The position numbers and the translations under genes are program-made. From Diretmus argenteus (lineage: Eukaryota), in contig CM109057.1 in NCBI GenBank assembly GCA_048569125.1, forward strand, positions 34,878,381-34,942,380: 64,000 nucleotides of DNA, in the 5' to 3' direction. The notes beneath the pieces are model-generated. The model was not told the DNA's origin. It worked only from the letters and a program-made list of their open reading frames with translations, and did not search any database. Shown here in pieces: positions 2,101-64,000 of this stretch; the first letter of the stretch is position 1; every line of letters begins with the position of its first letter.

Positions 2101-4086
2101 TGTTTCAGGTATGTGCTGAAGAGCATCGTCAATGCAACATCCAAGATTAAAATACAAGATTAATGTCAATATGAAAACACTGATATAAATGTTAAATATG
2201 TGTGTATTGCATTGCACACATTTACCTAATGGGCGTAGGTGGAATGTACAAAGACCTGAGATAGTTACTCAACAGATTACAGAGAGAAAGTGCAGAGTCA
2301 GGAAAACACAGGCTGACATGTACCCACGAAAGGATTATGACGCTTCGGTTTTTCCACTTTGGTCTGATGACAGAGTGACATCATGGAAGGTGACATGACA
2401 ACAATTGGATTAACTAATAATTGAGTACAGTTGATGAATCGAAGAACTTTGCATACACATGATGCGTAATGTCTCATGTAGTTCTAGGTTTATATTTAAA
2501 ACAGTTTCATCTCAATATGGATTTTAGAAACATGAACTGTCATGATCAAACTGACACGGTTCCTTCTGTGATAATGGATGAGAGCTAAAGCAGATCATTT
2601 GCATGGCTCTGGGCTGAAGAAACTGCCAGACGGAAGTAGTAACGCTGATAATTATCAGAGCCTGGAAAAAGTTATCATTTGCAAATACTCATAACGATAT
2701 AAAGATGGACTTCATGCAATGTTTATCTCTGCAAACCGACTGAATTTATACTTTATATGTAATGAATCATTTATCCTGTGCTCCATAAGTCATGATGCTT
2801 TTCAGTGTATCTGCTTGACTGGTGCGGGTGAAGTAGTTAAGTGAAAAGTATCTCCAAAAAGGAAAGGTTGCCCACGCCTGTAGCAACAAACTCTGAGACT
2901 AAATATTAATACACACTTCAACGACTTGGGTACATCTATTCCTTTATTTATACAATGAGAAACCAGCACCATAGAAAAGAGCAATGACCCATATAAAAAT
3001 GTTTTTAAAAATACATACAGTGAACTTATCCTCAAAATACCGGTAAAGACAATATTGACATTGGCACATATTCCAGTAACATTAGAAAACTGATTTAGAG
3101 TCCAAAATGTGACGCAGTAAACCTGAGTGGACAGACGTGGAGCAGGTTGTTAAAGTGCATTGAGTGTACAGTTTCTGTAACAGGTATGTTTTGTTCAAAG
3201 TGGTTAAGACAAAATACACATATTTAGTCTTGACAAGATAAGTCCACACAACGTATAGAATTAGACTGAGTAACAAAATGAGTTCTACCCTGAAACACCA
3301 GCAACATGGAACAACAAGGTCTAAATGGATGAAAAAAATATTTAAAAGCTGCTACGTGTGGAATTTTAACATCAATTAATCATCATCACATTCATTTAGA
3401 GAGATCTAGATGTAGATAAACAAGACCGAGACACTGAACTTGACGTTTTCTACCGGGTTGGATTTCATGGGAAATCTACCGGATTGCTTTACGGCACAAA
3501 TCAGCAAGGGGACGCTGTTCTTCCAAAAGGAGCTAAAGCTTTCAGAGTTTCAACCACAGCAGATGGTGGAAGGAGAGAAAGGCAGATGGAAAAATGACTT
3601 CCAACATGTTGATCCTCTTCAGTGAACCAAGAGAAAACCATCGACTGAAGAAGTAACATCCTCTCTTTGCAACATGAAGCAAGGGTTTATGGGAAATGTG
3701 GTCTTATGTGGGCTACCGGTCATCCAGTCCTGGTCTCCTTTGTCCATCTTCCAGGATGGCTTTGGAGCTCGAACGAGAGCCTCGGCGGGCAGGTTCATGC
3801 TCTCTATCGCTCCTTCTCCTCTCTCTCTCCCTCTGCTGAGTCCCTCCATCATCTCTTTTCATCCCCCTCTCCCCACCTCCGCCCTCAAACTGCTTCCACA
3901 TACTCTCCACCTTGCTCCCTCTCTTCTCCTCTCCCCTCTCCCTCCTCCACTCCCTCCCTACTCATCTCTTTCTTTCTTTCTTTTTTTCTCGTCTCCTGGT
4001 CTTTTTTAGTCTTGCTCTTCTCATCTGTTTGTTTCTTCTCCTCCTCTGCCCTCTCATTCTTGCTAGTTTTTTGCCTTTTCTCGCGC

Positions 4087-4785
4087 TTACTCACATTTTC
4101 TTTTTTTGGTTTTGGTTTGACTTTCCATTTCTTCCTCCTTTTTCCTTTTCACTGACTTGGACTCAACCTTGGTCTCACCTTTCCCCTTTCCCTTCATGAA
4201 CTGAACCGCCTGGTCCAGTTTCTGGTCCATGGTCTTCTGCAGCTGGGTCTTCATCTTTTTTAGCTCCAGGAGATCATCTTGAAAATCTTTACATACTTCC
4301 CGGATTGTGCAGGCTAATTTGGTTTTGGATCCTTTGCGGAGCTGGTGTGCGTTCTTGGCCAGGTGGAAGATATTCATTGGCAGGGAGAGGGCCGACATGA
4401 TCCCTTTGCCGGCGTCCAAAGGGCCCTCCACAGCGCCCTGCAAAGGGCCCTTCACAACGCCCTCCACAGCACCCCCCAAAGGGCTCTTCACAATGCCCTC
4501 CAAAAGGCCCTCCACAGCGCCCTCCAAAGGGCCATCCACAGCGCCCTCCAATGGGCCCTCCACAATGCCCTCCAAAGGGCCCTCCACAGCGCGCTCCACT
4601 CCTTTGAGGAGCTTGGGTGCGTTCTTGGCCAGGCAGAAGATATTCCGGCGCAGGGAGCGGGCAGACATGATCCCTGTGCCGGCGTCCACAGGGCCCTCCA
4701 CAGTGTCCTCCACAGCGCCCTCCACAGGGAAAGCGCTCTCCGAGTTCTTCTCAAAGTCCGAACCCTGGAGGGTGTCCATACCTTC
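4087..4785 (-). CDS. APOL-like gene 1, terminal exon with internal GPLEGAVE repeat expansion and K/E-rich tail
   Basis: The acceptor is cccttgtag and the exon encodes EGMDTLQGSDFEKNSES.... It keeps the conserved APOL C-terminal block (FHLAKNAHQLRKGSKTKLACTIREVCKDFQDDLLELKKMKTQLQ, compare human APOL [22 protein letters not shown]). The central helices are replaced by about 10 copies of a 24-bp repeat (GPLEGAVE) flanked by a duplicated ~100-bp segment. The exon then runs on into a K/E-rich tail and reaches the stop at 4087-4089. Confidence 0.6.
   Translation of the reverse strand, partial: EGMDTLQGSDFEKNSESAFPVEGAVEDTVEGPVDAGTGIMSARSLRRNIFCLAKNAPKLLKGVERAVEGPLEGIVEGPLEGAVDGPLEGAVEGLLEGIVKSPLGGAVEGVVKGPLQGAVEGPLDAGKGIMSALSLPMNIFHLAKNAHQLRKGSKTKLACTIREVCKDFQDDLLELKKMKTQLQKTMDQKLDQAVQFMKGKGKGETKVESKSVKRKKEEEMESQTKTKKRKCE
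4420..4600. repeat. 24-bp coding minisatellite (ccctccacagcgccctccaaaggg, ~8-10 copies) inside the terminal exon of APOL-like gene 1
   Basis: The tandem array is visible directly and translates on the minus strand as (GPLEGAVE)n. Confidence 0.85.
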
Positions 4786-5585
4786 CTACAAGGGTCACAC
4801 AGAGAGAATATGTTGATGTCAGTATGATGTCTAAATGTGTTGTTATTGACATGTGTTAGGTTGAAATGTGTTGTACCAAGCTAGAAATATGAAAGACTGT
4901 AGAGGCGGAGGAAGTACAGTATATACTCATCGGTTTCTGAGTAAAGATATTTGTGTGTGTGTTTTACAGAGCATGAACCCAACCTTTTCCCTTTTTTATA
5001 TTTAAATTTGTATTACTTTTGAAAAGACAAGACGGTTGACAAACAAAACTCAAGAAACACAACACAAAAACAATATAGACAAACAAAAAACAGAAGTGGG
5101 GGGAGGAGGTGCAGGGCAATCACAGCAGACGTGCCAAGTTACATACAGTGGCATAATATATATAGTACAGCTTTACTGTACTCATAATATACAGCTTTAC
5201 CTCTTACAAGGGATGTGACTCAAGGAATGACCTCACTGTGGTCCAAATCCCCGGCTCTGCTGCTCACCATTGTCCGCATAAGACAAGTATGAGGCTGCTC
5301 CCTCCATACTCACAACATTGAGAAATTCGTACAGCCAGTTATTCAGACAGAAGCAGTTGGGTTTCCTACGCAACCTTTTCTGATGTCTTAGTTCTTAACC
5401 CAACTCTTCTCTATTGTAACCATTAGGGACACAGGATTTACCATTTACGATCGACCTACATCCATCCAGGAAACCTTTGAGGCCTCTTCAGGTATCTCTT
5501 TTTCTTGCCAGGTTGCTTTATATTTAGACATTATCTTAAGCCTCTATAAGAGCATAAGCTAAATGCAAATCTAAAACTTCCTCAC

Positions 5586-6000
5586 CTGTACAAACTCCCA
5601 ACACTCCTTGATGTCCTTGATTTCCTCCTGGTATCCCTGGATCATCGTCTCCATCTTCTTCTTCTTCTTCTCGCAGCGTAACTTATCTGTTATATTGGCT
5701 GTTTTCGTGATTAAGCCGCCCACTGACGCTACGCCGATGCCTACTGCCGAGATGATGGTTGAGATGCCAAAGGTGAAGGGTGCCAGGGCGAACCCCGTGG
5801 TGTTGATCATGTGGCCGGCTAGTTCGGCCCCACGTCCGCCCAGGGCAGCCGATACCGTTTTCTTGTGGAATTTATCCAACTTGTCGGCCTGGACAAAAAG
5901 CTCCTGGATGCGCTGCTGTAAGGACGCCTCCCGCTGGTTGAAGAGCCGCACAAACAGACGGGTTGCCTTGAAGACACGGTCGGCGGCCTGCTCCACAGCC
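5586..6000 (-). CDS. APOL-like gene 1, main N-terminal domain exon (apolipoprotein L family)
   Basis: A 415-nt exon with acceptor ctctccag and donor GTACAG|gtgagg. Its translation runs AVEQAADRVF...LDKFHKKTVSAALGG...LAPFTFGISTIISAVGIGVASVGG...KMETMIQGYQEEIKDIKECWEFVQ. The glycine/alanine-rich membrane-insertion hairpin and its flanking helices align with human APOL1/APOL2 (…[27 protein letters not shown]…). Confidence 0.75.
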
Positions 6001-6177
6001 CTGGAGAGGAAAGACACATCAGTTATAAGGCTCATAGGATGTTGTATACCAGGGTTCCTACAGCGGGGAAGAGACTGAAGCAGTTATAGAATTAGAAAAT
6101 AACCTCATACACCCCAATGATCAAGTATTTAAGGGTTATTAGAGAGGGAATTTGAAGTGGCGCGTTGCACTGCTTAC

Positions 6178-6217
6178 ATTTCCTCATCGTCCTTCTGGAA
6201 ATTAGACCTCTTCCATT
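6178..6217 (-). CDS. APOL-like gene 1, short coding exon (EWKRSNFQKDDEE)
   Basis: A 40-nt exon with acceptor ggttggtcag and donor gtaagc. The reading frame closes exactly between the neighbouring exons, and the two leftover bases AT plus the leading G of the next exon make ATG. The exon is paralogous to 22467-22509. Confidence 0.45.
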
Positions 6218-6457
6218 CTGACCAACCTGGCAACCCAGAAACACAGATATCAGTGTTACCTTTAACTTTATCAGTGTTAACTTATGTAGCAGTGGTGCTG
6301 GGGGTGAGTACAGTTTTGGTTCTAGTATAGTACTGATCTTCTTTAGATACTTTATCATTAGAAACATTCATTCCAATCATCAGAAACTAGATGTTGTGTT
6401 GAAGTGGAAAGAGAAACCAAATTATTGCAATTTAAAGCTAAATACTGTTATACTCAC

Positions 6458-6494
6458 CTTCCACTGCATTCCACCATTCCATCAACTTAGTTTG
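6458..6494 (-). CDS. APOL-like gene 1, short upstream coding exon (QTKLMEWWNAVE)
   Basis: A 37-nt exon on the minus strand with acceptor tttttccag and donor gtgagt. It encodes the LMEWWN motif, which is also found in the equivalent exon of genes 2 and 3. It ends one base into a codon, so it links in frame to the next exon. Confidence 0.5.
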
Positions 6495-9010
6495 CTGGAA
6501 AAAATAATGTAAATGTTAAATTAGGAAAGACAAAATCACACAGCTCCAGATATCCAGATAGCCTGCCCCACCCACTGCCCCTGCCCCTCTCTACCTCTCT
6601 GAGCTTCTGCACCACCACAACCCCTCCAGATCCCTTAGGTCAGCAGACCAGTTACTGCTGGTGGTGCCTAGAACCAACCTCAAAACCAGAGGAGACAGAG
6701 CTTTTGCGGCTGCTGCACCCAAACTTTGGAATAGCCTCCCCCTTCACATACGAGCCGCTCAGACCCTGGACATTTTCAAATCCCTGCTAAAAACTCACTT
6801 GTTCTCCCTGGCCTCCCCCCCCCCACTTGGCCATTGTAAGCTACCTGGCTTTTATTGTTTCATTGCTATTATTGTTTTATTGCTTTTAGTTCTTTATTTA
6901 CGACTTTACCTTGCATTTTGTTGTTTTTATTTAGTTCTTATGCACTTTACCTGCTTGATATCTATGCTCCTCTCTGCTCCCTGCCTGTGAAGCACTTTGG
7001 TTCAGCTGCTGCTGTACAAATAAAGTTGACTTGACTTGACTTGACACACACACACACACACATAAAATGTTGCACTCCCTTCATGTTTATGAACTGCCGA
7101 CATCTTCCTCTTCCTGATCAGGGCTCCAGAGAAACTCACCAATCAGAAGTTCCCAAAGATGAACCAGACTTCAAGCAGGTATTTATTGTGGGATTCTGAT
7201 TCTCATCTCTGACCTACTGTGTTTTTGTAAACCACATTCCTCTTCATTCCCCCTCAGGGTAATCATGGGATGTCTCAGGAGAGGTTTAAGTGTGAGAGCA
7301 TGAAGCTGTTTCATGTGTAGTACATGATGAGGCAGAAGAAGGTCACGAATCACACTAGGATCATTTGATGAGTCACACACACACACACACACACGTGCAT
7401 ACACACCTCCTCAGACTGCAGGGCGTTGCCCTCACTAGGGTAAGCTGCCATTTCCACAGGCTGGATCTCTACTGTGTTCTCCTGGAAAACACAAACAAAA
7501 GCATCCACAAAGTGTACATACTTTATGAAATGACCCGCCAACAAAACAATACAGAACAGATGTTTAGATGTAAAAAGTCGTGGTTTGGATGGGACTCTAT
7601 GAGCGGAGTGTTGTTCCTGCTTAGCTGAGCCTTTCCATGTGTACAGATCAATACACATCTCCAGTACATCCTTGCTAACCTGTTCCAAAAATAGCGATGC
7701 ACTGTGCTGGGATTCCCAACCCCTTTTTATAATCTATCGTTATTGTTAAGTATGAAATCACATCAATGTGTGGCTACAATACCTAACTGCAGCTTATGGT
7801 AGCTCTCCCCTTACAAAAAAAAGTAGTCTCATACGCGGTGGTTAAGCCAGAACAGAACAGCACTATACTGTACTATTATAGTGTACAACTAGTGTACTGT
7901 TGTGCTGCTAAATAACCCATTAGACCTAATTGGCCTTGACATTACATCACTTAATAACAAACACATTCATACCTGCGGGAAGATGTTTTGAGTAGGGGGT
8001 GCTGTGCCGACGCTTCACTCCTCTTCGGTCCTTCTGAGCGAGCGACAGACGGAGGCAGACTCAGTCAGCGTGAAAACAGAACTCATACAGCCCTCACAAT
8101 GTGAAACCTTTGCTTACAAAATATTTGATGCAATTTGAAGAAGGAACTGAGAAACCGAGAAACCTCAACCCTACTGCAACACCTGAAGCACACAGGGAAA
8201 AAAATCAGTTTGAAGGTTTGGGATTGCTGCAATAGTTGCAATAGCTCATTGGTCATATTGACTATCAGGATAGTTTATATTCTACACTGAAATCCAGTCA
8301 AACAATGAAGGTCTGAAAAAAGCATGGACATTTGAAATGTATATGTGAAGAAATCCTGACTGGGAATAAAACCGTTTCACCCAAGACATTTGGAAATAAT
8401 AACGGGTTAACCATTTCTTTCCATTTTTGGTTTAGAATTGTTTTTTTCTCTCGTTTTTTTCCAACACAGTCATTTATTGTGTGGTTGGATTACAGTAACT
8501 CAGTAATCTGTGATAAATTAAAAGAGAAAAGAAATGTCCATCCTCATTATTCAATAACATTATGTTTCCTCTGCAACTGGCTAACCAACTAGCTAGCAAC
8601 AACCACGCTAACCAATAATGCACACACACAACTATGCAAATGTTTCTTTTGCGACACCTGTCATGACAGTGGTCACGGTTCAGCATTTCTGGACTGACTG
8701 ATTTGTATCTGTCTGTCTCAGGAAACTTGCGACCGTGTTGCGGTTATTGGAAATATCTACACTTTTGCAAACTTTGATGCAATCACATCTTGTAAGATTT
8801 ACCAACATGTGGTTGAGAATCACAGGTGCTTCCTCGTCTGATAGCTAGGCTACCCTAATGTCCTTAAGATCGACACAGTTTGACAGCTGTACAAGACAAC
8901 ATCATTCTGTCGGCGTTAAGGAAAATAATAAATATTTGAAACACCCCAAATTATAGTCTTATTATCTGAATGTTGTTTTTTCTTTACATTAATAAAATAT
9001 ACGATATAAT

Positions 9011-11789: not shown

Positions 11790-12210
11790 CCCAGTGGAGG
11801 GAACCACACCCTGGCCGGTGGCAGTGGAGAGAACCACACCCTGGCCGGTGGTAGTGGAGAGAACCATACCCTGGCCGGTGGCAGTGGAGAGAACCATACC
11901 CTGGCCGGTGGTAGTGAAGAGAATCATACCCTGGCCAGTGGTAGTGGAGAGAACCATACCCTGGCCGGTGGTAGTGAAGAGAATCATACCCTGGCCGGTG
12001 GTAGTGGAGAGAACCATACCCTGGCCGGTGGCAGTGGAGAGAACCATACCCTGGCCGGTGGTAGTGAAGAGAATCATACCCTGGCCAGTGGTAGTGGAGA
12101 GAACCATACCCTGGCCGGTGGTAGTGGAGAGAACCATACCCTGGCCGGTGGTAGTGGAGAGAACCACACCTTGGCCGGTGGTAGTGGAGAGAACCATACC
12201 CTGGGTTTAT
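11790..12210. repeat. 30-bp minisatellite in ~14 copies (gagagaaccataccctggccggtggtagtg), embedded in the LTR-retrotransposon fragment
   Basis: The tandem array is perfect or near-perfect, and both strands give open low-complexity ORFs. Confidence 0.9.
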
Positions 12211-16275: not shown

Positions 16276-16728
16276 TTGCGCTGTCCCTCAGCAAATAAAC
16301 AAACAAATCAAATCAAATATGTGTAGCCTGTGCATTGCACACATTTAACTAATGGGCATAGGTGGAATGTACAAAGACCTGACTTACTGTTTTGCTCTGA
16401 GCAGGGTTGACCTCTTGTCCCTCTCTGGCCTCCGAGGTGAGAGATTCATGCAATGTTTATCTCTGCAAACAAACAGAATTTATACTTTATATGTAATGAA
16501 TCATTTATCCCGTGCCCAATAAGTTATGATGCTTTTCAGTGTATCTGCTTGACTGGCGCAGTAGGCAATTGAAAAGTAGCTCCAAAAAGAAAAGGTTGCC
16601 CACGCCTGTAGTAAGATCACACTGAACAAACTCTGAGACTAAATATTGATACACACTTCAACGACTTGTGTTCATCTATTCCTTTATTTATACAATGAGA
16701 AACCAGCACAAAAGAAAAGGGCAATTAC

Positions 16729-16835
<107 letters not shown>

Positions 16836-17924
16836 TTATAAAAAATAAATTAAAAAATACATACTTGAAAAAATACATGAACTTATCCTCACATAACACA
16901 ACATTGGCGCATATTCCAGTAACATTAGAAAACTGAATTAGTCTAAAGTCCAAAATGTGAGGCAGTAAACCTGAGTGGACAGATGTGGAGCAGGCAACGC
17001 CTTGTTAAAGTGCAGTGAGTGTACAGTTTCTGTAACAGGTATGTTTTGTTCCAAGTGGTTTTAAGGCAACATACAAGTATTTAGTCTTGATGAGCTAAGA
17101 TACACACTGGATATCTACCAAGTACGTTGCGGGTGTATCTTCACACTGACCCTGGCATGTTTATTAAAGTTAAAAGAAAACACTGCATGAAAAGGATGCT
17201 GAAGCCCACACAACATGTAGACTGAGTAGCAAAATGAGTTTTACCCTGAAACACCAGGAACATGGAAAGTAACAAACAACAAGGTCTAAATGGATAAAAG
17301 TATTTAAAAGCTGCTACGTGTGGAATTTTAACATCAATTAATCATCATCACATTCATTCAGAGAGATGTAGATGTAGATAAACAAGACCAAGACACTTAA
17401 CTTGACACCGTTTGCCACCGGGTTGGATTTCATGGGAAATCTACCGGATTGCTTTACCGCACATATCAGGAAAGGGGCGCTGTTCTTCCAAAAGGAGCTA
17501 AAGCTTTCAGAGTTTCAACAACGGCAGATGGTGGAAGGAGAGAAAGGCAGATGGAAAAATGACTTCCAACATGTTGATCCTCTTCAGTGAACCAAGAGAA
17601 AACCATCGACTGAAGAAGTAACATCCTCTCTTTGCAACAGGAAGCAAGGGTTTATGGGAAATGTGGTCTTATGTGGACTACCGGTCATCCAGTCCTGGTC
17701 TCCTTTGTCCATCTTCCAGGATGGCTTTGGAGCTCGAACGAGAGCCTCGGCGGGCAGGTTCATGCTCTCTATCGCTGCTTCTCCTCTCCCTCTCCCTCTG
17801 CTGACTCCCTCCATCGTCTCTTCTCATCCCCCTCTCCCCACCACCGCTCTCAAACTGTTTCCGCATACTCTTCACCTTGCTCCTTCTCTTCTCCTCTCCC
17901 TCCATACTCGTCTCTTTCTTCACC

Positions 17925-19103
17925 TCACTTCCTTCCCTTTTCATCCCCCTCTCCAGTTCTATGTTCTTTACCTCTTTCCATTTCTACTCTCTTTGCCCTC
18001 TCTGCCTCACTTTCTTTCCTGCTCCATCTCTTCACATCTCTGCTGCTGCGTATCTCCCAGTTGCTTTCATCTTTGCTCCCTCTCTCACTCCTTTCCTTGG
18101 CTCTCTTTCTTTCACTCCTGCTGCCATGTCTGCTTGTGCTCCCTCTCCCAGCCTCTCTCCTTTTGACTCCATGCTTTTCTTTATCTCCTTTGGTCATCCC
18201 TCTTTCATTCTCTTTACCGCTCTTCTTCACCCTTTTAATCTTGCTCTTCTCATCTGTCTGTTTCTTCTCCTCCTCTGCCCTCTCATTCTTGCTAGTAACC
18301 TTTTTTGCCTTTTCTCGTTTACTCGTATCATTTTCTTTTTCGGTTTTGGTTTGATTCTCCATTTCTTTCTCCTTTTTCCTTCCTTTCTCAGACGGTTCTT
18401 TTGAAACCTCCTCTTTGGTCTTTTTCTCCACTTTGACAATCTCACTCATCTCCTGTTTGTCTCCCTCTCGTAGCCTTCCTGATTTGGACTCAATCATAGC
18501 CTCCTCCTTCCTCCCTTTCTTACTTCCCACATTTCCTTTCTTCTTAATCTCCTTGCTCTTTATCCGCTCCTCTAGAATCTTCTGGTCCAGTTTCTCCTCC
18601 AGGAGGTCCAGCTCCAAGTCCAGCTGAGCCAGTTTCACTGGGTCCAATTCCAAGTCATCATCCACCTCCACCTCCTCCATCTTCTCATACTCCTCCAGCT
18701 CGATGCCGTCCATGGTCTTCTGCAGCTGGGTCTTCACCTTGTTTAGATCCAGGAGGCCATCTTGAAGGTCTTTACATACTTCCCGGATCTTGCAGGCGAA
18801 CTTGGTTTTGGCGCCCTTGCGGAGCTCGTGGGAGTCCTTGGCCAGGAAGAAGATATTCAGGGCCAGGAAGAGGGCCGATATGACCCCTGTGGCGACGCTG
18901 ATGGCCTCGGCGGCTTTGGCAGCACCACCCGCAGCGCTCAGGACCTCCACAGTGCTGACAACCTTGTCGCTGTTGATCATCAGGGCCTTGCCGGCTCGAA
19001 CGCCCTCTTTCATCACATGCTTAATGTTGTGGTTCAGAGCCTTCTTGGCAGCGCTCTCCGAGTACTTCTCAAAGTCCCAACCCTGGAGGGTCTCCATACC
19101 TTC
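17925..19103 (-). CDS. APOL-like gene 2, terminal exon (APOL C-terminal helices plus ~250-aa K/E-rich low-complexity tail)
   Basis: The acceptor is ccttgtag and the exon encodes EGMETLQGWDFEKYSES...ATGVISALFLALNIFFLAKDSHELRKGAKTKFACKIREVCKDLQDGLLDLNKVKTQLQ. This matches the C-terminal amphipathic and leucine-zipper region of APOL proteins. The open frame then runs through CT-rich simple sequence (GA-rich on the coding strand), producing a long lysine/glutamate-rich tail before the stop at 17925. Confidence 0.65.
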   Translation of the reverse strand, partial: EGMETLQGWDFEKYSESAAKKALNHNIKHVMKEGVRAGKALMINSDKVVSTVEVLSAAGGAAKAAEAISVATGVISALFLALNIFFLAKDSHELRKGAKTKFACKIREVCKDLQDGLLDLNKVKTQLQKTMDGIELEEYEKMEEVEVDDDLELDPVKLAQLDLELDLLEEKLDQKILEERIKSKEIKKKGNVGSKKGRKEEAMIESKSGRLREGDKQEMSEIVKVEKKTKEEVSKEPSEKGRKKEKEMENQTKTEKENDTSKREKAKKVTSKNERAEEEKKQTDEKSKIKRVKKSGKENERGMTKGDKEKHGVKRREAGRGSTSRHGSRSERKRAKERSERGSKDESNWEIRSSRDVKRWSRKESEAERAKRVEMERGKEHRTGEGDEKGRK

Positions 19104-19849
19104 CTACAAGGGTCACACAGAGAGGATGGCAGTGAGAATATGTTGATGTCAGTATGATGTCTCAATGTGTTGTTATTGACATGTTAGGTTGAAAATGTGT
19201 TGTCCCGAGCTAGAAACACGAAAGACTGTAGAGACAGAGGAAGTATATAATCATCGGTTTCTGAGTGAAGATATTTGTGTGTGTGTGAAAGAGCATGAAT
19301 GCAAACTTTTCTGATGTAACCCAACCCTTCTCTATTGTACACGTTAGGGACATTTACTGTGCACGGGATTTACCATTTACTGAGTTACAATGACCTGAAT
19401 TTGAAAACAAATTGACCTTATCCACCTAAACTAAATCGTACAACGGCGTTTTAGGGCCACTGCAAAGAAACAAAAAGAAACTAAAATTTCGAAAATAAAG
19501 TCGTACGTATGTTACAAGAATAATCTCATAATGTTGAGTTCCTTTTTATTGATCAGTGCATTGGGTTCATGAAATGCGATATATAAGCCCAATTTATTAT
19601 TTTTACAATAGGCCTATTACGAGAATAAAGTCATAACTTTACGAGAATAAAGTCGTAACTTTACAAGAATAAAGTCGTAATTTTACGAGAATAAAGTCGT
19701 ATCGTTGCGAGAATAATGTTAATAAAGAAATTGCGGACTACTACATTTCCAGTGACCCACCTTGGAGGCTGTCCCAAGCCGTTTCCGTTAATACTAATGA
19801 TAATTCGGTGTCGATACACCAAAAGACCAAGGATTTCCTTGTTAGTAAA

Positions 19850-20990
19850 CCCTATTCTAAAGTATCATCATCATCCGCTTATCCGGGGTTGGGTCACAGA
19901 GGCAGCCGTTCCAGCAGAGGGTCCCAGACCTCCCTGTCCCTAGCCCCATCAACCAGCTCTGACCTGGGGATCCCGAGGCGCCCAAGGGCCAGTGCAGAGA
20001 TGTAATCCCACCACCTGGTCCTGAGTCTGCCTCGAGGTCTCCTCCCAGTAGGAAATGCCTGAAACACCTCCCTAGGGAGACGCCCAGGGGGCATGATCCT
20101 TACCAGATGCCCAAACCACCTCAACTGGCTCCTTTGACACAAAGGAGCAGCGACCAGGATGAAAGCTGTATTGTTCCTCTTCGATCTGAGGTTGGACTAT
20201 CGGCCAGACCCTCCTTTCCAGCACCTTAGACTAAAATTTTCCCAGGGAGGCTGAGTAATGTGATGCCTCTGTAATTTGCAAACATCCTCTGTTCCCCCTT
20301 TTTGAAGAGGGAAACCACCACCCCGGTCTGCCACTCCTTCGGCACTGCCCCCGACTTCCACGCTATGTTAAAGAGATGTGTCTCGTAACAGCCCCTCAAC
20401 ACCCAGAGCCTTGAGCATTTCCAGACAGATCTCATCAATCTCTGGGGCTTTGCCACTGTGGAGTTGTTGGACTACCTCATTGATCTCCTCCAGGGAAATT
20501 GATGTTGATCCCCCATCATCCTCAGGCTCATCCTCAGGCTCTGTCTCGATCGTAGAGGGTGGATTTGTTGGGTTCAGGAGTTCCTCAAAGTGCTCCTTCC
20601 ACCGGCCGATGACTTCCTCAGTTGAGGTCAAGAGTGTTCCATCCTTGCTGTACACAGCCTGGATGGTCCCCTGTTTCCCCTCCTGAGGTGCAAGATGGTT
20701 TTCCAGAAACATCTTGGTGCCGCCCGATAGTCCTTCTCCGTGTCTTCTCCGAACTTCTCCCACACCCGCTGCTTTGCCTCCGCCACGGCTGCAGCTGCCA
20801 TCCTCCGGGCCCGTCGGTACCTTGCAACTACCTCCGGAGTGTCCCGTGCTAGCATATCGGTTACCACCCCTTGAGGCACCTATGGCCCTATGGCCACAGC
20901 TCACAGCCGTGACTCCAGCAATGGAGGCTTTGACCATCACCCACTCTGTTTCGATGTCCCCAACCTCCACAATGATGTCAGTTTTCATTT
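19850..20990 (-). mobile_element. Internally deleted L2-like LINE copy inserted in the intron of APOL-like gene 2
   Basis: Minus-strand ORF fragments carry ...SISLEEINEVVQQLHSGKAPEIDEICLEMLKAL..., ...WQTGVVVSLFKKGEQRMFANYRGITLLSLPGKILV and ...LRWFGHLVRIMPPGRLPREVFQAFPTGRRPRGRLRTRWWDYIS.... Together these are the endonuclease, RT and C-terminal blocks of fish L2-type ORF2. The region is missing from the paralogous intron of gene 1. Confidence 0.7.
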
Positions 20991-21096
20991 CTTTTTTTCT
21001 AGGTTTATTTTTTGGGGATGTATATAATTGTTGTTTGTTAAATTTTGAGATTTATGTGTCCCCTCAGGAGGACTAGCAAATCGAAAACTTCCCCAC

Positions 21097-21511
21097 CTGT
21101 AAAAACTCCAAACACTCCCTGATGTCCTTGATCTCCTCTTGGTATCCCTGGATCATCTTCTCCACTTTCTTACGGTCCATGTTGGAGTGAACTGTATCTG
21201 TAATATTGGCTGTTGCCGAAATTATGTTGCCTACTGTTGTCACGCTGATGCCTACTGCCGTGACGATGACTGAGGCACCAAAGGTGAAGGGTGCCAGGAT
21301 GAGCCCCGTGATGGTTGTCACGCTGCCTGCTACTCTGGCCACCCCTCCGCCCACAGCGGCCGATACAGTTTTCTTGTGGAATTCATCCGCGGCGTCGGCA
21401 TGAGCCAAAAGCTGCAGGATGCGCTGCTGTAAGGACGCCCCCCGCTGGTTGAAGAGCCACACAAACAGACGGGCTGCCATGAAGACACGGTCGGCAACCT
21501 GCTCCACAGCC
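21097..21511 (-). CDS. APOL-like gene 2, main N-terminal domain exon (apolipoprotein L family)
   Basis: A 415-nt exon, the same length as its gene 1 paralogue, with acceptor ctctccag and donor TTACAG|gtgggg. Its translation runs AVEQVADRVFMAARLF...FHKKTVSAAVGGGVARVAGSVTTITGLILAPFTFGASVIVTAVGISVTTVG...KVEKMIQGYQEEIKDIRECLEFLQ. Confidence 0.75.
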
Positions 21512-22466
21512 CTGGAGAGGAAAGACGCATCAGTTATGAGGCTCATAGGATGTTGTATACCAGGGTTCCTACAGCGGTGAAGCGACTGAAGCAGTTATAG
21601 ATCTAGAAATGCATGCTCGGAGAGCGCAGACCTCCGCCCAGGATGCATGTCGCCTGTTCATGCGATTCAGATTCAGATCCACTCCAAAATGTAATAGCTC
21701 TTCCTTGGGCCAAGCTGCACCTATCCAATGGGTATCATGAAAATCGGATGCTGCGTTAAGCTATAGACCTCACTTCCTGTTGACGTGGCATTTCATTGGG
21801 CGTTTCATTGGGTAGCGGCCATGTTAAATTGTGCCCAGTGACCCTTAGGGAGCATGCATATTAAGTAGAATGTCAAAGAGATGTTGTGTTAAACAATGAG
21901 ACCTCACTTCCTGTTTACGCGGCGTTGCGTTGACCTTTAGTGGCGGCCATGTTAAATTTTGCCCATTGGCTCTTAGGGAACATACATATTAAGTAGAATG
22001 TCAAATGGATGATGCGTTTACACCTCACTTCCTGTGTACATGGCGCCCTACGTGGCACCCCGTGATTTGGATCCGCCCCAAAATTTCAGGGGGTCATCGT
22101 TGACTGATACTACACCCTTCCACTGGGTTTCATGAAAATTGGATGTTGCAAAAAGCAATTAGAGCTCATTTCCTGTTTATGTGGTGTCCTACGCGGCGTC
22201 TCGTGATTCGGATCTGCCCCAAAGTTTTCCTGGGTCATCGATGTCCGATACTGCACCCTTCCACCAAGTTTCATGAAAATCGGTCTGGTAGTTTTTGCTT
22301 AATCTTGTACACAGACAAACGAACGGACGCTACTGAAAACTTTACCTCTCGCCCCGGACTTCGTCCTTGGGCGGAGATAATTAGAAAATAGCCTGAAAAG
22401 TTATCGGGGGTTAAGTTATTTTGAGGGAATTTGAAGTGGCACGTTAGAAACACATGCACTACTTAC

Positions 22467-22509
22467 ATTTCCTCATCGTCCTCCTGGAAATGGGACGTCT
22501 CATTCCATT
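22467..22509 (-). CDS. APOL-like gene 2, short coding exon (EWNETSHFQEDDEE)
   Basis: A 43-nt exon with acceptor ggttggtcag and donor gtaagt. The reading frame bridges the exon before it and the main exon, and the leftover AT plus the next G makes ATG. Confidence 0.45.
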
Positions 22510-22773
22510 CTGACCAACCTGGCAACAGAAACACAGATATCAGTGTTTCTTCTATAACTTTATGTAGCAGTGGTGCTGGGGGTTATCTCACTGTCACTTC
22601 CAAATCAGTCCCCGTTTGGTTCACAGTTTTGGTTCTAGTATAGTTAGAGTACCGATCTTCTTTAGATACTTTATCATTAGAAACATTCATTCCAATCATC
22701 AGAAACTAGATGTGTTGAAGTGGAAAGAGAAACCAGATTATTGCAATTTAAAGCTAAATACTGTCACACGCAC

Positions 22774-22813
22774 CTGCCACTGCATTCCACCATTCCATCA
22801 ACTCATCATTTTC
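22774..22813 (-). CDS. APOL-like gene 2, short upstream coding exon (ENDELMEWWNAVA)
   Basis: A 40-nt exon with acceptor ttctattcag and donor gtgcgt. It is paralogous to 6458-6494 and 41201-41240. Confidence 0.5.
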
Positions 22814-23519
22814 CTGAATAGAATAATTTAACTGTTAAATTAGGAAAGAGAAAATCACACAGCTCCCTGGATATCCAGATAGCCTGCCATGCACACATAC
22901 ACGTGCATATACAGTACACACCTCCTCAGACTGCAGGGGGTTGCCCTCACTAGGGTAAGCTGCCATTTCCACAGGCTGAATCTCTACTGTGTTCTCCTGG
23001 AAAACACAAACAAAAGCATCCACAAAGTGTACATACTTTATGAAATGACCCGCCAACAAAACAATACAGAACAGTTTAGATGTAAAAAGTCGTGGTTTGG
23101 ATGGGACTCTATGAGCGGAGCGTTGTTCCTGCTTGGCCGAGCCTTTCCATGTGTATAGATCAATACACATCTCCAATACATCCTTGCTAACCTGTATCGG
23201 GGTCAGCTCCTGCATCTCCATAGTCTCAAGAAGAGGCAGCTTGTCAGAGCTCTACAGGAGGAATAAATTACCCAGTTAGTCTGTAATAAGAAAGTTTGAG
23301 AACTTTTTGAATGCCAAGAAACATTCATAATAATACCATGCAAACTAAACAGTATTGAATATAATAATTAAGAATAATTGTATTTATAAAGCACTTTTCA
23401 TACAAGAGCAACTCAAAGTGCAGAGTAAAAACAAATAAACAATAAAACAAGGAGAATTAAGAAAAAGTACATAAAAAGGGGGGGAAAGTGTTAGCAAAAA
23501 GAAAAGCAAAAAGCAGGGC

Positions 23520-34859: not shown

Positions 34860-35075
34860 GCAGCGTCCAGGTCTGCAGTCTACACTCAGGTCTGCAGTCT
34901 ACACACTCAGGTCTGCATTCTGCACTCAGGTCTGCAGTCTACACTCAGGTCTGCAGTCTACACACTCAGGTCTGCAGTCTACACTCAGGTCTGCAGTCTA
35001 CACTCAGGTCTGCAGTCTACACTCAGGTCTGCAGTCTACACTCAGGTCTGCAGTCTACACTCAGGTCTGCAGTTT
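34860..35075. repeat. 19/24-bp minisatellite (caggtctgcagtctacact) x~10
   Basis: Direct read. Confidence 0.85.
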
Positions 35076-35289: not shown

Positions 35290-37440
35290 GCTAAGGTAAG
35301 GTATAAGGTAAGCTAAGGAAAAAATTAAAAAACATGACCAATATCAATAAGAAGACCCATCCCATAGCCAACACTGACCCTGAGCTTCCAGACAAACTAA
35401 ACCAATTTTACAGCCGCTTTGAACATTCCCCAGTGCCCCAATACTCCCCCCCCAGCCCTGCCCCCCCACCTCCTTTTGTCATCACAGAGGAGGAGGTGAG
35501 AAAGGAGTTCAGAAAGCTGGACAAAAGGAAAGCTGCTGGCCCTGACGGTGTCAGTCCAGCCGTCCTCTCACACTGCGCTAACCAACTAGCTCCACCTTTC
35601 ACCCATCTGTACAACTCCATCCTCCGTCACTGTACTGCACCAGACTGTTCTAAGGACTCCATCATCATCCCCGTACCCAAATCCAACAAAATCACCTGCC
35701 TCAACGACTACCGACCCATCGCCTTGACATCTGTCGTCATGAAGTCGTTTGAGCGTATCATCCTCTCCCATCTGAAAGAACACACCTCCCCCCTACTGGA
35801 CACTCACCAATTTGCATACCGCCCCAACAGATCTGTGGAGGATGCAGCCAACCTCACCCTTCACAGCACACTACAACACCTGGACTCACCCAACACCTAC
35901 ACCCGCATCCTCTTCATGGACTTCAGCTCTGCATTCAACACCATAGATCCGGTTAAACTGTACAACAAAATGACAGACATGAACATTCACCCCAGCCTAT
36001 GTCACCTCACCAGAAGCTTCCTGTGGCAGAGGCGTCAGAGGGTTAGGATAGGCAGCCTCCTGTCCGGACCCCTGACCCTCAGCACAGGTGTCCCCCAGGG
36101 CTGTGTGCTGTCCCCATGGCTCTTCTCCCTGTACACCAACCACCTAACATCCCACCACAGTTCTGTCTCCATATCCAAGTATGCCGACGACACCACCATA
36201 ACCGGACTCATCACCAACAATAACGAGGATCACTACCGTGAACAGGTGGCCTAAGCTGTCACTTGGTGCCAGGACAACAACCTTCATCTCAACACATTCA
36301 AGACCAAAGAACTCCAAATAGACTTCAGACGGAACCCACCCCCCAAGAAACCCCTCTACATCTCCGGACAACCCATCACCACTACAGACTCCTACAAATT
36401 CCTTGGCACACACATCAGCAACACACTCAAATGGCAAGTCAACACCAGTCACATAATCAAAAAGGCCAACCAAAGATTATTTCACCTCCGGCAGCTAAAA
36501 AAATACAAAGTCAAACGCAACCTCCTCATACAGTTCTATACAGCTATCACTGAAAGCATTCTCACATCATCTATCATAGTCTGGTTTGGTAGTCTGGACA
36601 GCCAATCTCGCAACAAACTTCACCGAATTGTCAGAAAAGCATCCAAAATCATAGGCACCCCCCTCCCATCACTAGACTCACTCTACCACAAACGCACAAT
36701 CCAACGAGCACATAAAATAATCTCTGATCCATCCCACCCAGCTAACCACCTATTCCAACTGTTGCCCTCTGGGCGGCGCTACAGATCCATTTCCACCAAG
36801 ACAACCCGTTTCAAAAACAGCTTTTTCCCCACTGCTATCCGGTCCCTGAACGCATTTTGAAACATCCACAACCATGTACCTATGTCTTGTTGTCATCCAT
36901 GTACTGTTGTGTAATGTTGTGTATTGTGAAATGTTCTTGTCCTGCGGACACAGTGATTTTTGAGCAACTGTACATGCTGCACCGACAGCAAATTCTACCG
37001 ACCATTGGTTGTGTAGCCTTTAATAAATGAATCTGAATCTGAAGCTACGCTAAGCTACGCTAAACTAAGCTAAGTTAAACTAAGCTAAGCTAAATTAAAC
37101 TAAGCTAAGTTAAACTAAGCTAAATTAAACTAAGCTAAGCTAAATTAAACTAAGCTAAGTTAAACTAAGCTAAATTAAACTAAGCTAAGTTAAACTAAGC
37201 TAAGCTAAATTAAACTAAGCTAAGCTAAATTAAACTAAGCTAAGTTAAACTAAGCTAAGCTAAATTAAACTAAGCTAAGTTAAACTAAGCTAAGCTAAAT
37301 TAAACTAAGCTAAGTTAAACTAAGCTAAGCTAAGTTAAACTAAGCTAAACTAAACTAAGCTAAGCTAAGTTAAACTAAGCTAAACTAAACTAAATTAAAC
37401 TAAGCTAAGCTAAACTAAACTAAGCTAAACTAAGCTCAGA
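35290..37440 (+). mobile_element. Second, degraded copy of the same LINE family, with a frameshifted RT ORF and a 3' (CTAAGCTAAATTAAA)n tail array
   Basis: ORF 35334-36254 carries the RT motifs FMDFSSAFNTI, QGCVLSPWLFSLYTNH and YADDTTITGLI. The reading frame shifts near 36250. The C-terminal ...KNSFFPTAIRSLN lies at ~36800-36860. A tandem ctaagctaa(a/g)ttaaa array follows at 37030-37440. Confidence 0.7.
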
Positions 37441-39950: not shown

Positions 39951-40893
39951 TCAAACATATTCCCGGTTCTCGATGTCCTTTTTGATGGCTTTTTTGATGC
40001 GGTCAATTTCATCTTCGTCTGAACTCTCAGGTTTCTCATCCTTCTCGGCTTTGACAGAGGTAGCTGTGTTATCGTTTTCTGATGGGCCGGTGGACTGAAG
40101 CTCCTCCCGTATCCCGTTGAGCTCCACCAGACCTTCGTGTAGCTGGACCGCCACCTCCCTGATTTTGCCAGCAAACTCTGACTTGGCCCCTTTCTTGAGT
40201 TCTTTGGAATCTTTGGCCACAAAGTAGATGTCCATACCTACGAAGAGTCCAGTTAGCACCCCCGTGGCCATGCTGGCAATCTGAACTGCTCTGGCCGCTG
40301 TGCTGCCGGCCACGTTGGCAATCTGCACCACACGCATGATCTCATTAGCATTGATCAGGATGGCCTTGCCTGCCATGGCGCCGTCCTCGTAAATATTGTT
40401 GAGGGCAGGGAAGTCCCGGTTGTAGGCGTGCTTCTTCATCTTGAGCAGGTCGAACCTGCGCAGATTCTCAATCCCCTGCTTGATGAACATCATGCACTTG
40501 TTGAGGTCGGCTATCTTCTCCTGGTAGTCCTCCACTATCTTCTCCACCTTCTTGCGGTCCATGGAGTTGTTGACCTGGTTAGAAATGCCGGCGCCCGCTG
40601 AGGTGAGACCGCCCGCCGTGGCCACGCCCAGCCCCACCGCTGTGATGATCAAGGATGTCCCAAAAGTGACGGGGGCTAGAGCCAGGCCGGCAATGGTGGC
40701 CACACCTCCGATGGCGCTGGTGGATCCGCCGGTGATTTGGGCGATCTTTGTGTTCTTGTTGAATTTGTCCAGGCCGTCAGCAATGGAGTTCAAGTCAATG
40801 ACGTGCTGCCACAGGCTCTCGGCGCGCTCCGAGAACAGCTTATTAAAGACACGGATTCCCTTCTGCACCTTCTCCGCTGTCACAGCAAATGCC
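39951..40893 (-). CDS. APOL-like gene 3, single large exon encoding the complete apolipoprotein L domain
   Basis: The acceptor is tttctgtttcaag. A continuous 314-codon frame runs AFAVTAEKVQKGIRVFNKLFSERAESLWQHV...DKFNKNTKIAQITGGSTSAIGGVATIAGLALAPVTFGTSLIITAVGLGVATAGG...MATGVLTGLFVGMDIYFVAKDSKELKKGAKSEFAGKIREVAVQLHEGLVELNGIREELQ...REYV, with the stop at 39951-39953. It is collinear with human APOL2 across the hairpin and C-terminal helices. Unlike genes 1 and 2, it has no intron between the two halves of the domain. Confidence 0.8.
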
Positions 40894-41200: not shown

Positions 41201-41240
41201 GTTCCACCGTGTTCCACCACTCCATAAGACCCTCCAGATC
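41201..41240 (-). CDS. APOL-like gene 3, short coding exon (DLEGLMEWWNTVE)
   Basis: A 40-nt exon with acceptor tgtttcag and donor gtaagt. It carries the LMEWWN motif shared with genes 1 and 2. Confidence 0.5.
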
Positions 41241-45704: not shown

Positions 45705-47123
45705 GGGTATTGGAAGATTAATCAGCCATCGGCTTTTTCCTGCCCCAAACTGAAGTTATTATATCGGCCTTTAAAAATCCACTATCGGTCGACCTCTACT
45801 TAGCACATTAAAACATGACAGTACATAACAAGAAGCGTGAACTTGGAAGAATGCCATGAAAAACTGACACGGATCCTTTCGTGATAATGGATCGGAGCGG
45901 ATCATTTGCATGGCTCTGGGCTGAAGGAACTGACAGAGGGAAGCAGTAACGCTGATAATCATCAGAGCTTTATTATTTGCAAATACTTTGGCCGTAACGA
46001 TAAAAAGATCTGACTTACTGTTTTGCTCTCTGCAGGGTCGACCTCTTGTCCTTCTCTGGCCTCCGCGGTGAGAGATTCACCTTCTTTCAGCGCTTCATCG
46101 TCCGACTGGCTCAGGAGCAAATACTACAAATATTAAAGAGAACTCAACATGCTTTAGACCCAGTGGATGTCGTCAGGTGTTGATTATGATGAATTAGAAT
46201 ATTGGGTCTGATATATTGGCTGAACCATCGCGCGTGTACACTTTCTATACCTGACTGTCCTTCTTCTGCTTTTGCGGACCGCGTCTTCCTCCTCGGTTCA
46301 TCTCCTGAAATGAAACCAGAACGGTTTCCTGAGTCACAAGGGCACATTGTGCAACGGCTCATCGATACACATCGGTTCCGTCGCGATAAGCTACCATCCG
46401 ATCGCGATTACGCAACCGCCGAGCGCTTACCTCCTCTGTGGGTCTGGCAGGAACCGTCGGAGTTTCTGCCCATCTCCCGTCTCTCTCCCTGGGGATCATG
46501 TTCTTGTTATTCTAGGAAGGACAAAGAAAAAAATGTAAAATGAGATCCGCCGTTTGAAAAGCGACACCCGCTCCTACAAAATGCACATTAAAGACAAATT
46601 ATGTACACAGAGGACATGAAAACTAGACGGGGTCCTTTACATCCGAATGATGAACTGAAGGATTTGTGTTATAATCAAACACGACAGACTGCAGTGATGT
46701 ACAGATAACCTACATATCACTTAAAATAGAAGCTCAACCCGCTACCTGAACGTCCTCAGCTCCTCTGGGGTTCAGTTTGTCTTTTGCTGCCGTCCCCTTC
46801 AGCTCCTGTGGAGAGACGTCAGACTTTAGCCGGGAGAATGTAGCACAGACAGAGAAGTCCGAATAGTCTCACGTGAACCACATGGCACTGCAAACCTCTT
46901 CTGTTGTTCTGGACGTTTCACTTCTGTCCTTCCTCTCTTGCTGGATCAGATTGCTTTTGACCTGGCAAGGACACGCACACGCAAACACACACGAGCTTGA
47001 GCTGGAGAGGGAGTTTTGACATTGGGCGGTCAGCATTTAAAGGGAGGCGAAGAGATGAAGAGGATGTGGTAGGTACAGTAGGTATAAAAGAGGAAGAGCC
47101 GAGAGGAGAGGTTATTTTTCAAG

Positions 47124-47126
<3 letters not shown>

Positions 47127-47177
<51 letters not shown>

Positions 47178-47178
47178 T
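47127..47178. repeat. (GT)n microsatellite, ~25 copies
   Basis: Direct read. Confidence 0.95.
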
Positions 47179-47989
47179 CACTGATGACGAAACAGCGATG
47201 CAAAAAATAGACTGACCGGCTTCGGCTTCTCCTCCCCTTGTTTCTCGTTCTCCTTGAGCGTCTCCTCAGTGTCTTTCTGAACAAACACAAAAAAAGGTAG
47301 CAGCTGTTACCCATCGTACGCTATAAACCAGGTTAACACAACACATCACTACGAGTTCAACTGAACCCTCTGGTTTTAGAAGCGCTATCACCACCAGCCA
47401 CCATCACCATGACTATCACCAGTCCACTCAGGAGGACTCAGGTCACCAACACCTCCCTCTAACACAAGCACCTGCCCCCAGCCAAGTTAAACACATTCAA
47501 CCACGTCTTTACTTTGTTTGCTGAGCGGAACGGATTCAGTTTGGACATGGCTCCAGCCATCGCGCTCTGAGGGGGAGGAACATATATTGTGAACACATAG
47601 TGTGAGATTCAGTCACTTAGAAACCCTTTGGAAACATGTTGTGGTCATACGCTTTCAAAAGCCACACTTCCTCGTTTCCCAATAGTTCCGCCCGGCGAGT
47701 GCAAAATGATCACAGTCATTCAAAGTTTCCCAGTTCGCTCTCAATATTTACTGCAAAGACAACAGAAATAAATGTCTCTAAAACGATACTCGTTTATTTT
47801 CTATTAATGCTACCTAATTAGCATCTGCAAGCTAGCTGACTCATCAAAACTATATAGAGGTGCAACGATTAGTCGATTAATTGATTAGTTGTCAACTATT
47901 AAATCAATAGCCAACTATTTTGATAATCGAATATTCGCTTTGAGTCATTTTTTAAAGAAAAAATGTCTCTAATTTCAGCTTCTCAAATG

Positions 47990-63510: not shown

Positions 63511-64000
63511 CCCCCCCCCTTGTGTTTGTCTGTATTTCAATGTCCAGTGTTTTTTCCATCATAATTGATATATTTTGGGTGAGACCAGACTATATCTCTC
63601 CTGTCCAGATTAAACTTCCTTGTGTTCTTCATAAATAAGGCAAATCGGGGGAATAATAGACTGGATTTAGTATTAAGTAATGGAAAAAATACAATTACAA
63701 ATTTAGAAATTGGTGAAACATTACGAAATAGCGATTACAAAGTCATCAGATTTGACCTTAACTTAACAAATGAGAAGAAAGGAAATAATAGAATTGTAAC
63801 AGACTTCAGAAAAGCAAATTTTAAAGGTTTAAGAGACACTCAGAAACCAGTTCTGTTTTGAACTCAGTGGTTCTGGCTAAACTATTTAATTTAAATTAAA
63901 AAAACACACTCAGATATTAAACTTTGATTATATTTCTCACGCTATGACACAACTTTATAAACTAAAATACACAGTTTTAAATCCAGTTTATTATTCCCCT

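Follow-up and report, generated by a model that had tools for sequence, protein, structure and literature searches.

Coding minisatellites, or in-frame variable-number tandem repeats, occur in vertebrate genes such as MUC1, DRD4 exon 3, PER3 and involucrin. They are built of head-to-tail units whose length is a multiple of three, with a higher-order periodicity, inside an exon whose reading frame stays open; they originate by slippage or unequal exchange, and copy-number polymorphism is their usual hallmark. A second described system is formed by the human cation-channel-forming proteins APOL1-6, for which we follow the domain model that PMC8358165 summarises from Schaub et al. The pore-lining region of APOL1 is the fourth transmembrane segment and governs gating and selectivity (PMC8358165). 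Both systems meet in a stretch of 64,000 nucleotides (nt) from the teleost Diretmus argenteus (GenBank assembly GCA_048569125.1, contig CM109057.1, forward-strand positions 34,878,381 to 34,942,380), which we call the window and within which all positions below are counted. A Pfam profile search identified three ApoL-domain (PF05461) genes on its minus strand, here numbered 1 to 3, and the last coding exon of gene 1 carries a coding minisatellite together with a duplicated homologue of the pore-lining region. ApoL paralogues and coding minisatellites are each known; what is new is their combination in gene 1.

Gene 1 shares with coding minisatellites the head-to-tail units, the unit length in multiples of three, the higher-order periodicity, the open frame inside an exon and probably the mode of origin, and it differs from them in two respects. 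Its array stands in place of a conserved segment of a helical membrane-active domain, not in a pre-existing linker or mucin-like region, and it is coupled to the duplication of a neighboring helix. To compare the fish proteins with the human ones, we aligned them with human APOL1 and APOL2 as given in PMC8358165. At an identity of 19-26%, three elements align with the fish genes: the hydrophobic hairpin (the membrane-insertion domain), the pore-lining region with ..EGAKSE../..KGAKTK.. after it, and the leucine-zipper helix at the C-terminus. Gene 1 departs from the human proteins in that its pore-lining homologue is duplicated, is less hydrophobic and lacks the AKD aspartate of the fish family, and where the human proteins have helices before the pore-lining region, gene 1 has a tetrapeptide repeat. 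The residue that aligns with APOL1 D348 is Asn in gene 1 and likewise in gene 2.

The nearest homologues are teleost proteins that the databases name apold1a, apold1b, si:rp71-1g18.13, si:cabz01007802.1 and "apolipoprotein L3/L4/L6-like" (APOL3/4/6-like), examples being P0009 from Megalops atlanticus and P0018 from Pempheris klunzingeri. They have in common with gene 1 the Pfam family and the exon chain (…WW.TVEGW.EWN…, the ApoL exon and the last exon). Their identity to gene 1 is at most 63% and is limited to the N-terminal half, whereas gene 2 reaches 82-84% over exon d. None of the 262 significant matches covers the gene 1 array, and with the last exon alone as query the matches are confined to the C-terminal helix and the second, downstream copy of a duplicated block. 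We found no functional literature on apold1a, apold1b, rp71-1g18.13 or cabz01007802.1, and a zebrafish interferon-stimulated-gene preprint mentions only human APOL1; the immune-effector label, which a first-pass annotation made from the sequence had attached to gene 1, is an assumption for this gene and for the fish family. Copy-number variation of APOL in stickleback is described, and positive selection on primate APOL genes is cited, in PMC4159527.

Anatomy of the rearrangement in exon e

In exon e of gene 1 the rearrangement extends over 4330-4731, a little beyond the 4335-4705 of the first-pass annotation, and is ordered as array 1, block A, GTGGAG, array 2 and block B (Table 1). The basic unit is 12 base pairs (bp) long, is spaced at 12 nt and encodes G-[A/P/I]-[V/L]-E; the 24-bp period comes from the alternation of GAVE and GPLE. 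The units of array 2 read RAVE GPLE GIVE GPLE GAVD GPLE GAVE GLLE GIVK SPLG GAVE GVVK GPLQ GAVE GPLD. Tandem Repeats Finder reports the array at 4415-4598 with a period of 24, 7.7 copies, 79% matches and a score of 207, scores it at periods of 12 (score 174) and 36 too, and finds a second short array at 4685-4729 with a period of 12 and 3.8 copies. Both arrays summed come to ~9.6 24-bp equivalents as read from one haplotype, which agrees with the ~8-10 copies of (GPLEGAVE)n counted earlier, although the 24-bp repeat of that count is an alternation of 12-bp units. Allowing at most three mismatches, the 24-mer consensus occurs seven times, in every case within 4414-4719, and is absent from 100 shuffles.

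A repeat search recovered two 127-nt copies, at 4330-4456 and 4600-4726, that are 85% identical and lie 270 bp apart, and the motif AG(T/K)GIMSA(R/L)SL..NIF(C/H)LAKNA is found twice in exon e, as had been observed before. The description of this duplicated block as bracketing the repeat array needs amendment, given that the block is no neutral bracket: it aligns with the pore-lining region of APOL1 (VSFFLVLDVVYLVYESKHLHEGAKSE versus GVMSALFLALDIFFLAKDSHELRKGAKTK). The reading frame is open from 4785 to the stop codon at 4087-4089, and the frame of the 12- and 24-bp units is fixed by the acceptor at 4785 and by homologous flanks on either side. The peptide GAVEGPLEGIVEGPLEGAVDGPLEGAVEGLLEGIVK is an example from the predicted gene 1 product.

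We consider it extremely improbable that this structure is an assembly artefact, that is, a mis-joined or expanded repeat. Tandem repeats are in general a source of assembly error, and nothing specific points to one here. The whole structure, at ~400 bp, fits inside one long read, and its units are individually distinct (79% matches) while the blocks differ at 12 of 84 positions, indicating diverged copies and not stutter. It also appears very improbable that the array and block A are spliced out through a cryptic intron, which would run from the GT of a GTGGAG unit to cctttgcag/G near 4441 and would leave a protein without the central segment. By sequence reading only, the GTGGAG units supply a GT and an acceptor-like sequence occurs in one unit (GGCCCTTTGCAG/GGC, 4449-4438). 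These candidate sites are weak relative to the splice consensus, however, and genes 2 and 3, like the rest of the family, have coding sequence without interruption at the homologous position; no observation requires a cryptic intron.

HMMER matches array 2 to tetrapeptide-repeat proteins with E values down to 4e-57, with 243 representatives at E <= 1e-3 (including P0124, P0129, P0130 and P0134). These unrelated (hydrophobic-E/D-G-x)n proteins, such as P0130 (LEGSVEGTLDGSLEG..), P0134 (EGAVEGAIDGVNEG..) and P0124 (TEGPLQNS repeats), have the periodicity and composition of array 2. We rejected the matches as homology, as there is no likeness outside the repeat and the domain contexts differ; the resemblance is one of convergent low complexity and indicates that tetrapeptide arrays are a recurrent, convergent repeat type. 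Metagenome contigs contain no match to an exact 36-mer over the junction of the array with block B, and an exact-product look-up of the exon e open reading frame (ORF) and of the mechanical ORFs for exon d in genes 1 and 2 gave no match in the ENA/JGI/NCBI/Logan index.

The missing segment and the retained parts of the ApoL domain

The assignment of gene 1 as APOL-like is borne out by its match to PF05461, which scores 74.6 bits (cutoff 25.9). This match covers profile positions 43-171 of 298 only, whereas in genes 2 and 3 it reaches position 297. The breakpoints come from a nucleotide alignment of genes 1 and 2, as the first-pass annotation had suggested. By BLASTN of locus against locus, gene 2 18898-19049 (152 bp; ~50 codons) has no counterpart in gene 1, and gene 1 4415-4731 has no gene 2 counterpart except block A. 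The segment that is absent from gene 1, as had been claimed, is conserved across the teleost family and comprises the helical stretch ..NIKHVMKEGxRAGKALxIN..VLxxAGGAAKAA.. between the hairpin and the pore-lining region; gene 1 is also without the family-conserved acidic GIEVE.. segment. The peptide earlier attributed to genes 2 and 3 is that of gene 2, with gene 3 having a homologous but different sequence, and it is not missing in its entirety: its ATGV is kept as AG(T/K)GI, and its STVE is probably kept as DTVE. In the AlphaFold model of P0009, the lost segment corresponds to a helix at residues 227-258 (32 residues), a loop and the first turn of a helix at 268-291. The loss of "central helices" thereby narrows to one helix and the start of the next, and even this wording is of low confidence as the predicted local distance difference test (pLDDT) score of this stretch is below 50.

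Much of the remaining domain is in place. The hydrophobic hairpin is kept in gene 1, with GFALAPFTFGISTIISAVGIGVASVGG aligning with the family and with the APOL1/2 hairpin (LAPFT motif), and its first arm has additional polar residues (GGRGAELAGHMINTTG). The C-terminal amphipathic/leucine-zipper helix is kept as well, with SKTKLACTIREVCKDFQDDLLELKKMKTQLQKTMD aligning throughout after ..KGAKTK... In the AlphaFold model of gene 1, pLDDT is 85-90 for the helices at the N- and C-termini (85-87 for helix 345-395) and below 50 over array 2 (residues 262-329), the product of which is probably an acidic, Gly/Pro-rich, unstructured linker. The predicted gene 1 protein would keep the N-terminal helices, the hairpin and the C-terminal coiled-coil helix, and it would not be a conventional ApoL channel.

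Origin and age of the rearrangement

The repeat unit resembles codons that gene 2 still carries. The 12-mer consensus matches the native GCACTGTGGAGG of gene 2 (S-T-V-E codons in the missing segment) at 11 of 12 positions, a score reached by 20 of 2000 shuffles. In addition, the array 1 unit GAC ACT GTG GAG (DTVE) corresponds to gene 2 AGC ACT GTG GAG (S-T-V-E) at the colinear position, and this unit with its neighbor matches gene 2 at 17 of 24 positions, as do 16 of 2000 shuffles. The match of the unit to native codons and the colinear DTVE point to growth from the original codons by slippage or unequal exchange, and the array probably grew out of these native S-T-V-E codons and was not a foreign insertion, as the word "replaced" had implied. 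The 12/24-bp unit occurs nowhere else in the 64-kb window. The 24-mer was also considered as a dispersed repeat or part of a transposable element, and this was rejected for the window because all of its matches lie inside the array.

Both arrays finish in GGCCCT(G/T)TGGAC immediately before a block, so at least the last units predate a tandem duplication of array end plus block. Blocks A and B are identical at 72 of 84 nt and differ at 12 (14%). Where the blocks depart from gene 2, 11 positions are common to A and B, six are found in A only and four in B only, and two differ in all three sequences; this balance of shared and private changes puts the duplication at about the midpoint of the divergence between gene 1 and gene 2. 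The non-coding divergence between the two genes, from per-segment alignments of introns and flanks, is 111 substitutions in 1817 nt (~6%). Measured against this ~6%, the 14% between the blocks makes the rearrangement an old event, not a recent one, on the scale of intron divergence between genes 1 and 2. The idea of a recently derived variant is therefore not upheld, and the ~79% matching among units points the same way.

A model in which a 12/24-bp amplification seeded by native codons was joined by a 270-bp duplication that doubled the pore-lining helix is well supported by this anatomy. In such a model, replication slippage or unequal exchange would have multiplied a 12-bp unit derived from the native S-T-V-E codons into the GAVE/GPLE (24-bp) array, and most of the ~50 conserved codons around S-T-V-E would have been lost. 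A tandem duplication, with a period that is now 270 bp, would then have copied the array end and the next helix, the homologue of the APOL1 pore-lining region, and the array between the blocks would later have expanded to 15 units. Every step would have altered the length by a multiple of three, so that the exon stayed open.

Coding status of gene 1

The first-pass annotation offered a derived APOL variant or a decaying copy, and this is the correct pair of hypotheses. We prefer, at about even odds, the reading of gene 1 as a translated, or recently translated, non-canonical and fast-diverging ApoL paralogue whose frame was maintained while it diverged, over that of a long-dead pseudogene. We found no stop codon or frameshift in the conserved ApoL coding region of gene 1 across its five exons, and the sole frameshift relative to gene 2 falls in the poorly conserved K/E-rich tail. 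All nine of its splice dinucleotides are canonical AG/GT. The 816 aligned coding nt contain no stop despite 123 differences from gene 2; in a neutral simulation, a stop-free outcome arises in 1.5% of runs if all changes are placed on gene 1, 2.6% at 85% and 10.7% at 50% (P = 0.015 to 0.107). The four independent net length differences upstream of the gene 1 stop (-3, -3, +165 and -243) are all multiples of three, whereas 11 of the 21 non-coding gaps between genes 1 and 2 are not. Finally, amino-acid differences that arise from single-nucleotide changes have a mean BLOSUM62 score of 0.20, compared with -0.32 for random non-synonymous mutation (P = 0.015), and are thus more conservative than chance. 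Since the frame appears to have been kept by selection outside the array, the array most likely was, and may still be, translated.

Each of these observations also speaks against the alternative, an unprocessed pseudogene. On that view gene 1 would be a decaying tandem duplicate, partial and truncated at its 5' end, in which the minisatellite, the block duplication and the helix loss amount to neutral damage. Such a copy would have kept its frame through the low-complexity repeat, the 12-bp length steps and luck elsewhere, or would have died recently. We hold this to be quite possible, if somewhat doubtful, and a number of findings favor it over a maintained gene. In columns that are at least 90% conserved in 12 other teleost proteins, gene 1 alone departs at 23 N-terminal and 15 C-terminal positions, compared with three and one for gene 2 (P = 9e-5 and 5e-4), or 38 departures against four. 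The pairwise ratio of non-synonymous to synonymous substitution rates (dN/dS) of the ApoL exon is 0.94, a value obtained with older exon boundaries that included ~35 nt of near-identical intron, to slight effect, and the differences by codon position are flat at 31/26/25. Together these two results look like the pattern of unconstrained sequence. Nor do the repeat units bear a signature of purifying selection, the variation among them being 16 non-synonymous to two synonymous changes and that between the blocks ~9:1. The open frame through the structure, which the first-pass annotation had noted, is real but carries no weight: between 4330 and 4731 four of the six frames are free of stops, and in a neutral simulation the coding frame is still open in 35% of cases, so this stretch is uninformative.

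The pore-lining helix is degraded in both of its copies. The mean Kyte-Doolittle hydropathy of the 15-residue core is 1.23 in block B and 0.44 in block A, whereas gene 2 reaches 2.38 and the consensus of the family 2.04. Arg, Pro, His and Cys have taken the place of Leu, Ala and Phe, and in both blocks the family's AKD aspartate has become Asn (AKN). From the aligned residues, gene 1 is without a canonical pore-lining helix and would have two degraded copies instead of one hydrophobic helix. At its 5' end, gene 1 lacks a counterpart to the ATG-bearing exon of gene 2, the sequence there being unrelated and without an in-frame ATG. At its 3' end, a +1 frameshift shortens the tail relative to gene 2, further out-of-frame indels follow, and a family-conserved acidic segment is deleted. 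No protein with this arrangement was found in two database searches (5.8 billion clusters).

A last group of observations concerns the exons and introns of the duplicate. The interior of exon d (5586-6000 versus 21097-21511) is 70-78% identical between genes 1 and 2, whereas introns and flanks are 90-97.5% identical (for example, 6227-6457, 7482-7683 and 3262-3935). An excess is found at synonymous sites too: in exon d, 12 of the 89 codons for the same amino acid differ, as do seven of the 44 four-fold sites, compared with 6% of non-coding positions (P about 0.01), making synonymous sites of exon d two to three times more diverged than introns. Exons that are more diverged than introns are not predicted by simple decay of a recent duplicate, under which exon divergence would be at most that of introns, and this counts further against a pseudogene. 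The pattern suggests a mosaic history, in which gene conversion homogenized the non-coding parts or the exons were converted from a third paralogue, and diversifying selection on the coding parts may contribute to the exon excess. In that case gene conversion may have brought the exon differences in from some other functional paralogue. Gene 1 could then show a stop-free frame without selection having acted on it, and the argument for a live gene is weaker for it. It is possible but rather unlikely that gene 1 is both live and diverging adaptively, with its coding exons driven apart faster than its introns, the pre-pore helix turned into an expandable acidic tetrapeptide linker, and the pore-lining helix doubled and repurposed. 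If so, gene 1 would represent a new domain architecture in a membrane-active family, with a length that is possibly variable through copy number.

Altogether the rearrangement is real but of a fairly ordinary kind, in a gene copy that diverges fast. Should gene 1 be translated, a few slippage and duplication steps would have remodeled a helical membrane-active ApoL protein, with a structured helix giving way to a repeat linker and a pore-lining element being duplicated while losing its transmembrane character. It would then offer a natural dissection of the dispensable parts of ApoL, as well as a marker of variable length in a gene family whose copy-number changes and rapid evolution are known elsewhere. 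If it is a pseudogene, we are dealing with routine repeat growth in unconstrained coding DNA that matters mainly for annotation, and the open frame is no evidence of function.

Gene models and other features of the window

Exon boundaries were set from the homologues of other fishes and by direct reading of the sequence, and the five exons a-e of gene 1 join in frame (Table 1). Genes 1 and 2 form a colinear segmental duplication (2194-7683 versus 16315-23195). The colinearity ends at 7683 in gene 1 and 23195 in gene 2, 4 nt upstream of the splice donor of the ATG-bearing exon of gene 2, and the 5' end of gene 1 would be either truncated or different; its exon a has an in-frame ATG in good context (gaaATGg). 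Over the whole of exon d, gene 1 is ~80% identical to gene 2 (21097-21511) and ~41% identical to gene 3. In the tail of gene 1 (3885-4110, minus strand), one extra A in a poly-A run puts TAA in frame at 4089-4087, and 3' of this stop a K/E-rich tail like that of gene 2 goes on out of frame, with more indels that are not multiples of three.

A mechanical ORF starts exon d at "MSLITD...", and we rejected this start as intronic, with comparison to homologues placing the true acceptor at ctctccag/G, 6001/6000. The 35-40 nt upstream of this acceptor (5997-6035 and 21508-21546; "MSLITD..FLSR") are near-identical in genes 1 and 2 even though they are intronic, which is why six-frame ORF lists give a misleading exon start. 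Extra DNA is present in the d-e intron of gene 2 (19381-21075, ~1.7 kb, with several ORFs of up to 206 residues that have no Pfam match) and in the a-b intron of gene 1 (6568-7383, ~0.8 kb); both are probably transposable-element insertions. For gene 3, tblastn places likely upstream exons at ~41202-41240 and 46430-51750 on the minus strand, among them LMEWWNTVE and several exons with the motif K(L/V)NPF(R/K)S, typical of the long N-terminal region of the fish family.

Table 1. Positions of the exons, repeat arrays, blocks and satellites in the window
Feature	Position	Strand	Remarks
Gene 1 exon a	7407-7481	-	ENTVEIQPVEMAAYPSEGNALQSEE; 2 differences in 75 nt relative to gene 2
Gene 1 exon b	6458-6494	-	QTKLMEWWNAVE; 3 nt shorter than gene 2 exon b, frame kept
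Gene 1 exon c	6178-6226	-	GWSEWKRSNFQKDDEEM; 3 nt shorter than gene 2 exon c, frame kept
Gene 1 exon d	5586-6000	-	N-terminal half of the ApoL domain with the hydrophobic hairpin (..GFALAPFTFGISTIISAVGIGVA..)
Gene 1 exon e	4087-4785	-	Last coding exon; houses the entire rearrangement
Gene 1 exon e acceptor	4786/4785	-	ttgtag/GAAGGT; stop TAA at 4089-4087
Array 1	4684-4731	-	Four 12-bp units: FPVE GAVE DTVE GPVD
Block A	4600-4683	-	Upstream homologue of the pore-lining region; AGTGIMSARSLRRNIFCLAKNAPKLLKG; three Arg in the former hydrophobic core
Junction GTGGAG and array 2	4414-4599 (array 2, 4593-4414)	-	15 units of 12 bp
Block B	4330-4413	-	Downstream homologue of the pore-lining region; AGKGIMSALSLPMNIFHLAKNAHQLRKG; runs into the conserved C-terminal helix (SKTKLACTIREVCKDFQDDLLELKK...)
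Gene 2 exons a-e	22996-22922, 22813-22774, 22518-22467, 21511-21097, 19103-17925	-	
Gene 2 upstream ATG-bearing exon	23251-23192	-	SSDKLPLLETMEMQELTPIQ; ends at donor 23192
Gene 2 exon e	17925-19103	-	Intact comparator; includes the 152-bp segment 18898-19049
Gene 3	39951-40883	-	Second intact comparator; ApoL domain in a single uninterrupted ORF
Satellite/minisatellite	34868-35073		19 bp x 10.6 copies
Satellite/minisatellite	37042-37436		15-35 bp units over ~390 bp
Satellite/minisatellite	47990-49651		41 bp x 40.6 copies, 97%
Satellite/minisatellite	59940-60330		32 bp x 12.2 copies
Satellite/minisatellite	62119-63511		20 bp x 69.5 copies

Two further observations stand apart from the rearrangement. 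A phmmer search of P0009 against PDB sequences gave only two matches, both weak (E = 9e-4), which involve residues 55-173, the part homologous to exon d of gene 1. They are to alpha-pore-forming toxins of the ClyA family, MakE (6w08) and NheL1 (6tao). A Foldseek search of the family model against the PDB returned nothing significant (best E = 0.16), with the ClyA toxin family recurring among the hits (XaxB, ClyA, AhlB, SmhB and MakA). Between genes 1 and 2, at 11793-12204, lies a 30-bp tandem repeat of 13.7 copies with 92% identity; its Pfam matches are weak and sub-threshold, and it is open on both strands, with ORFs of 165 and 141 residues.

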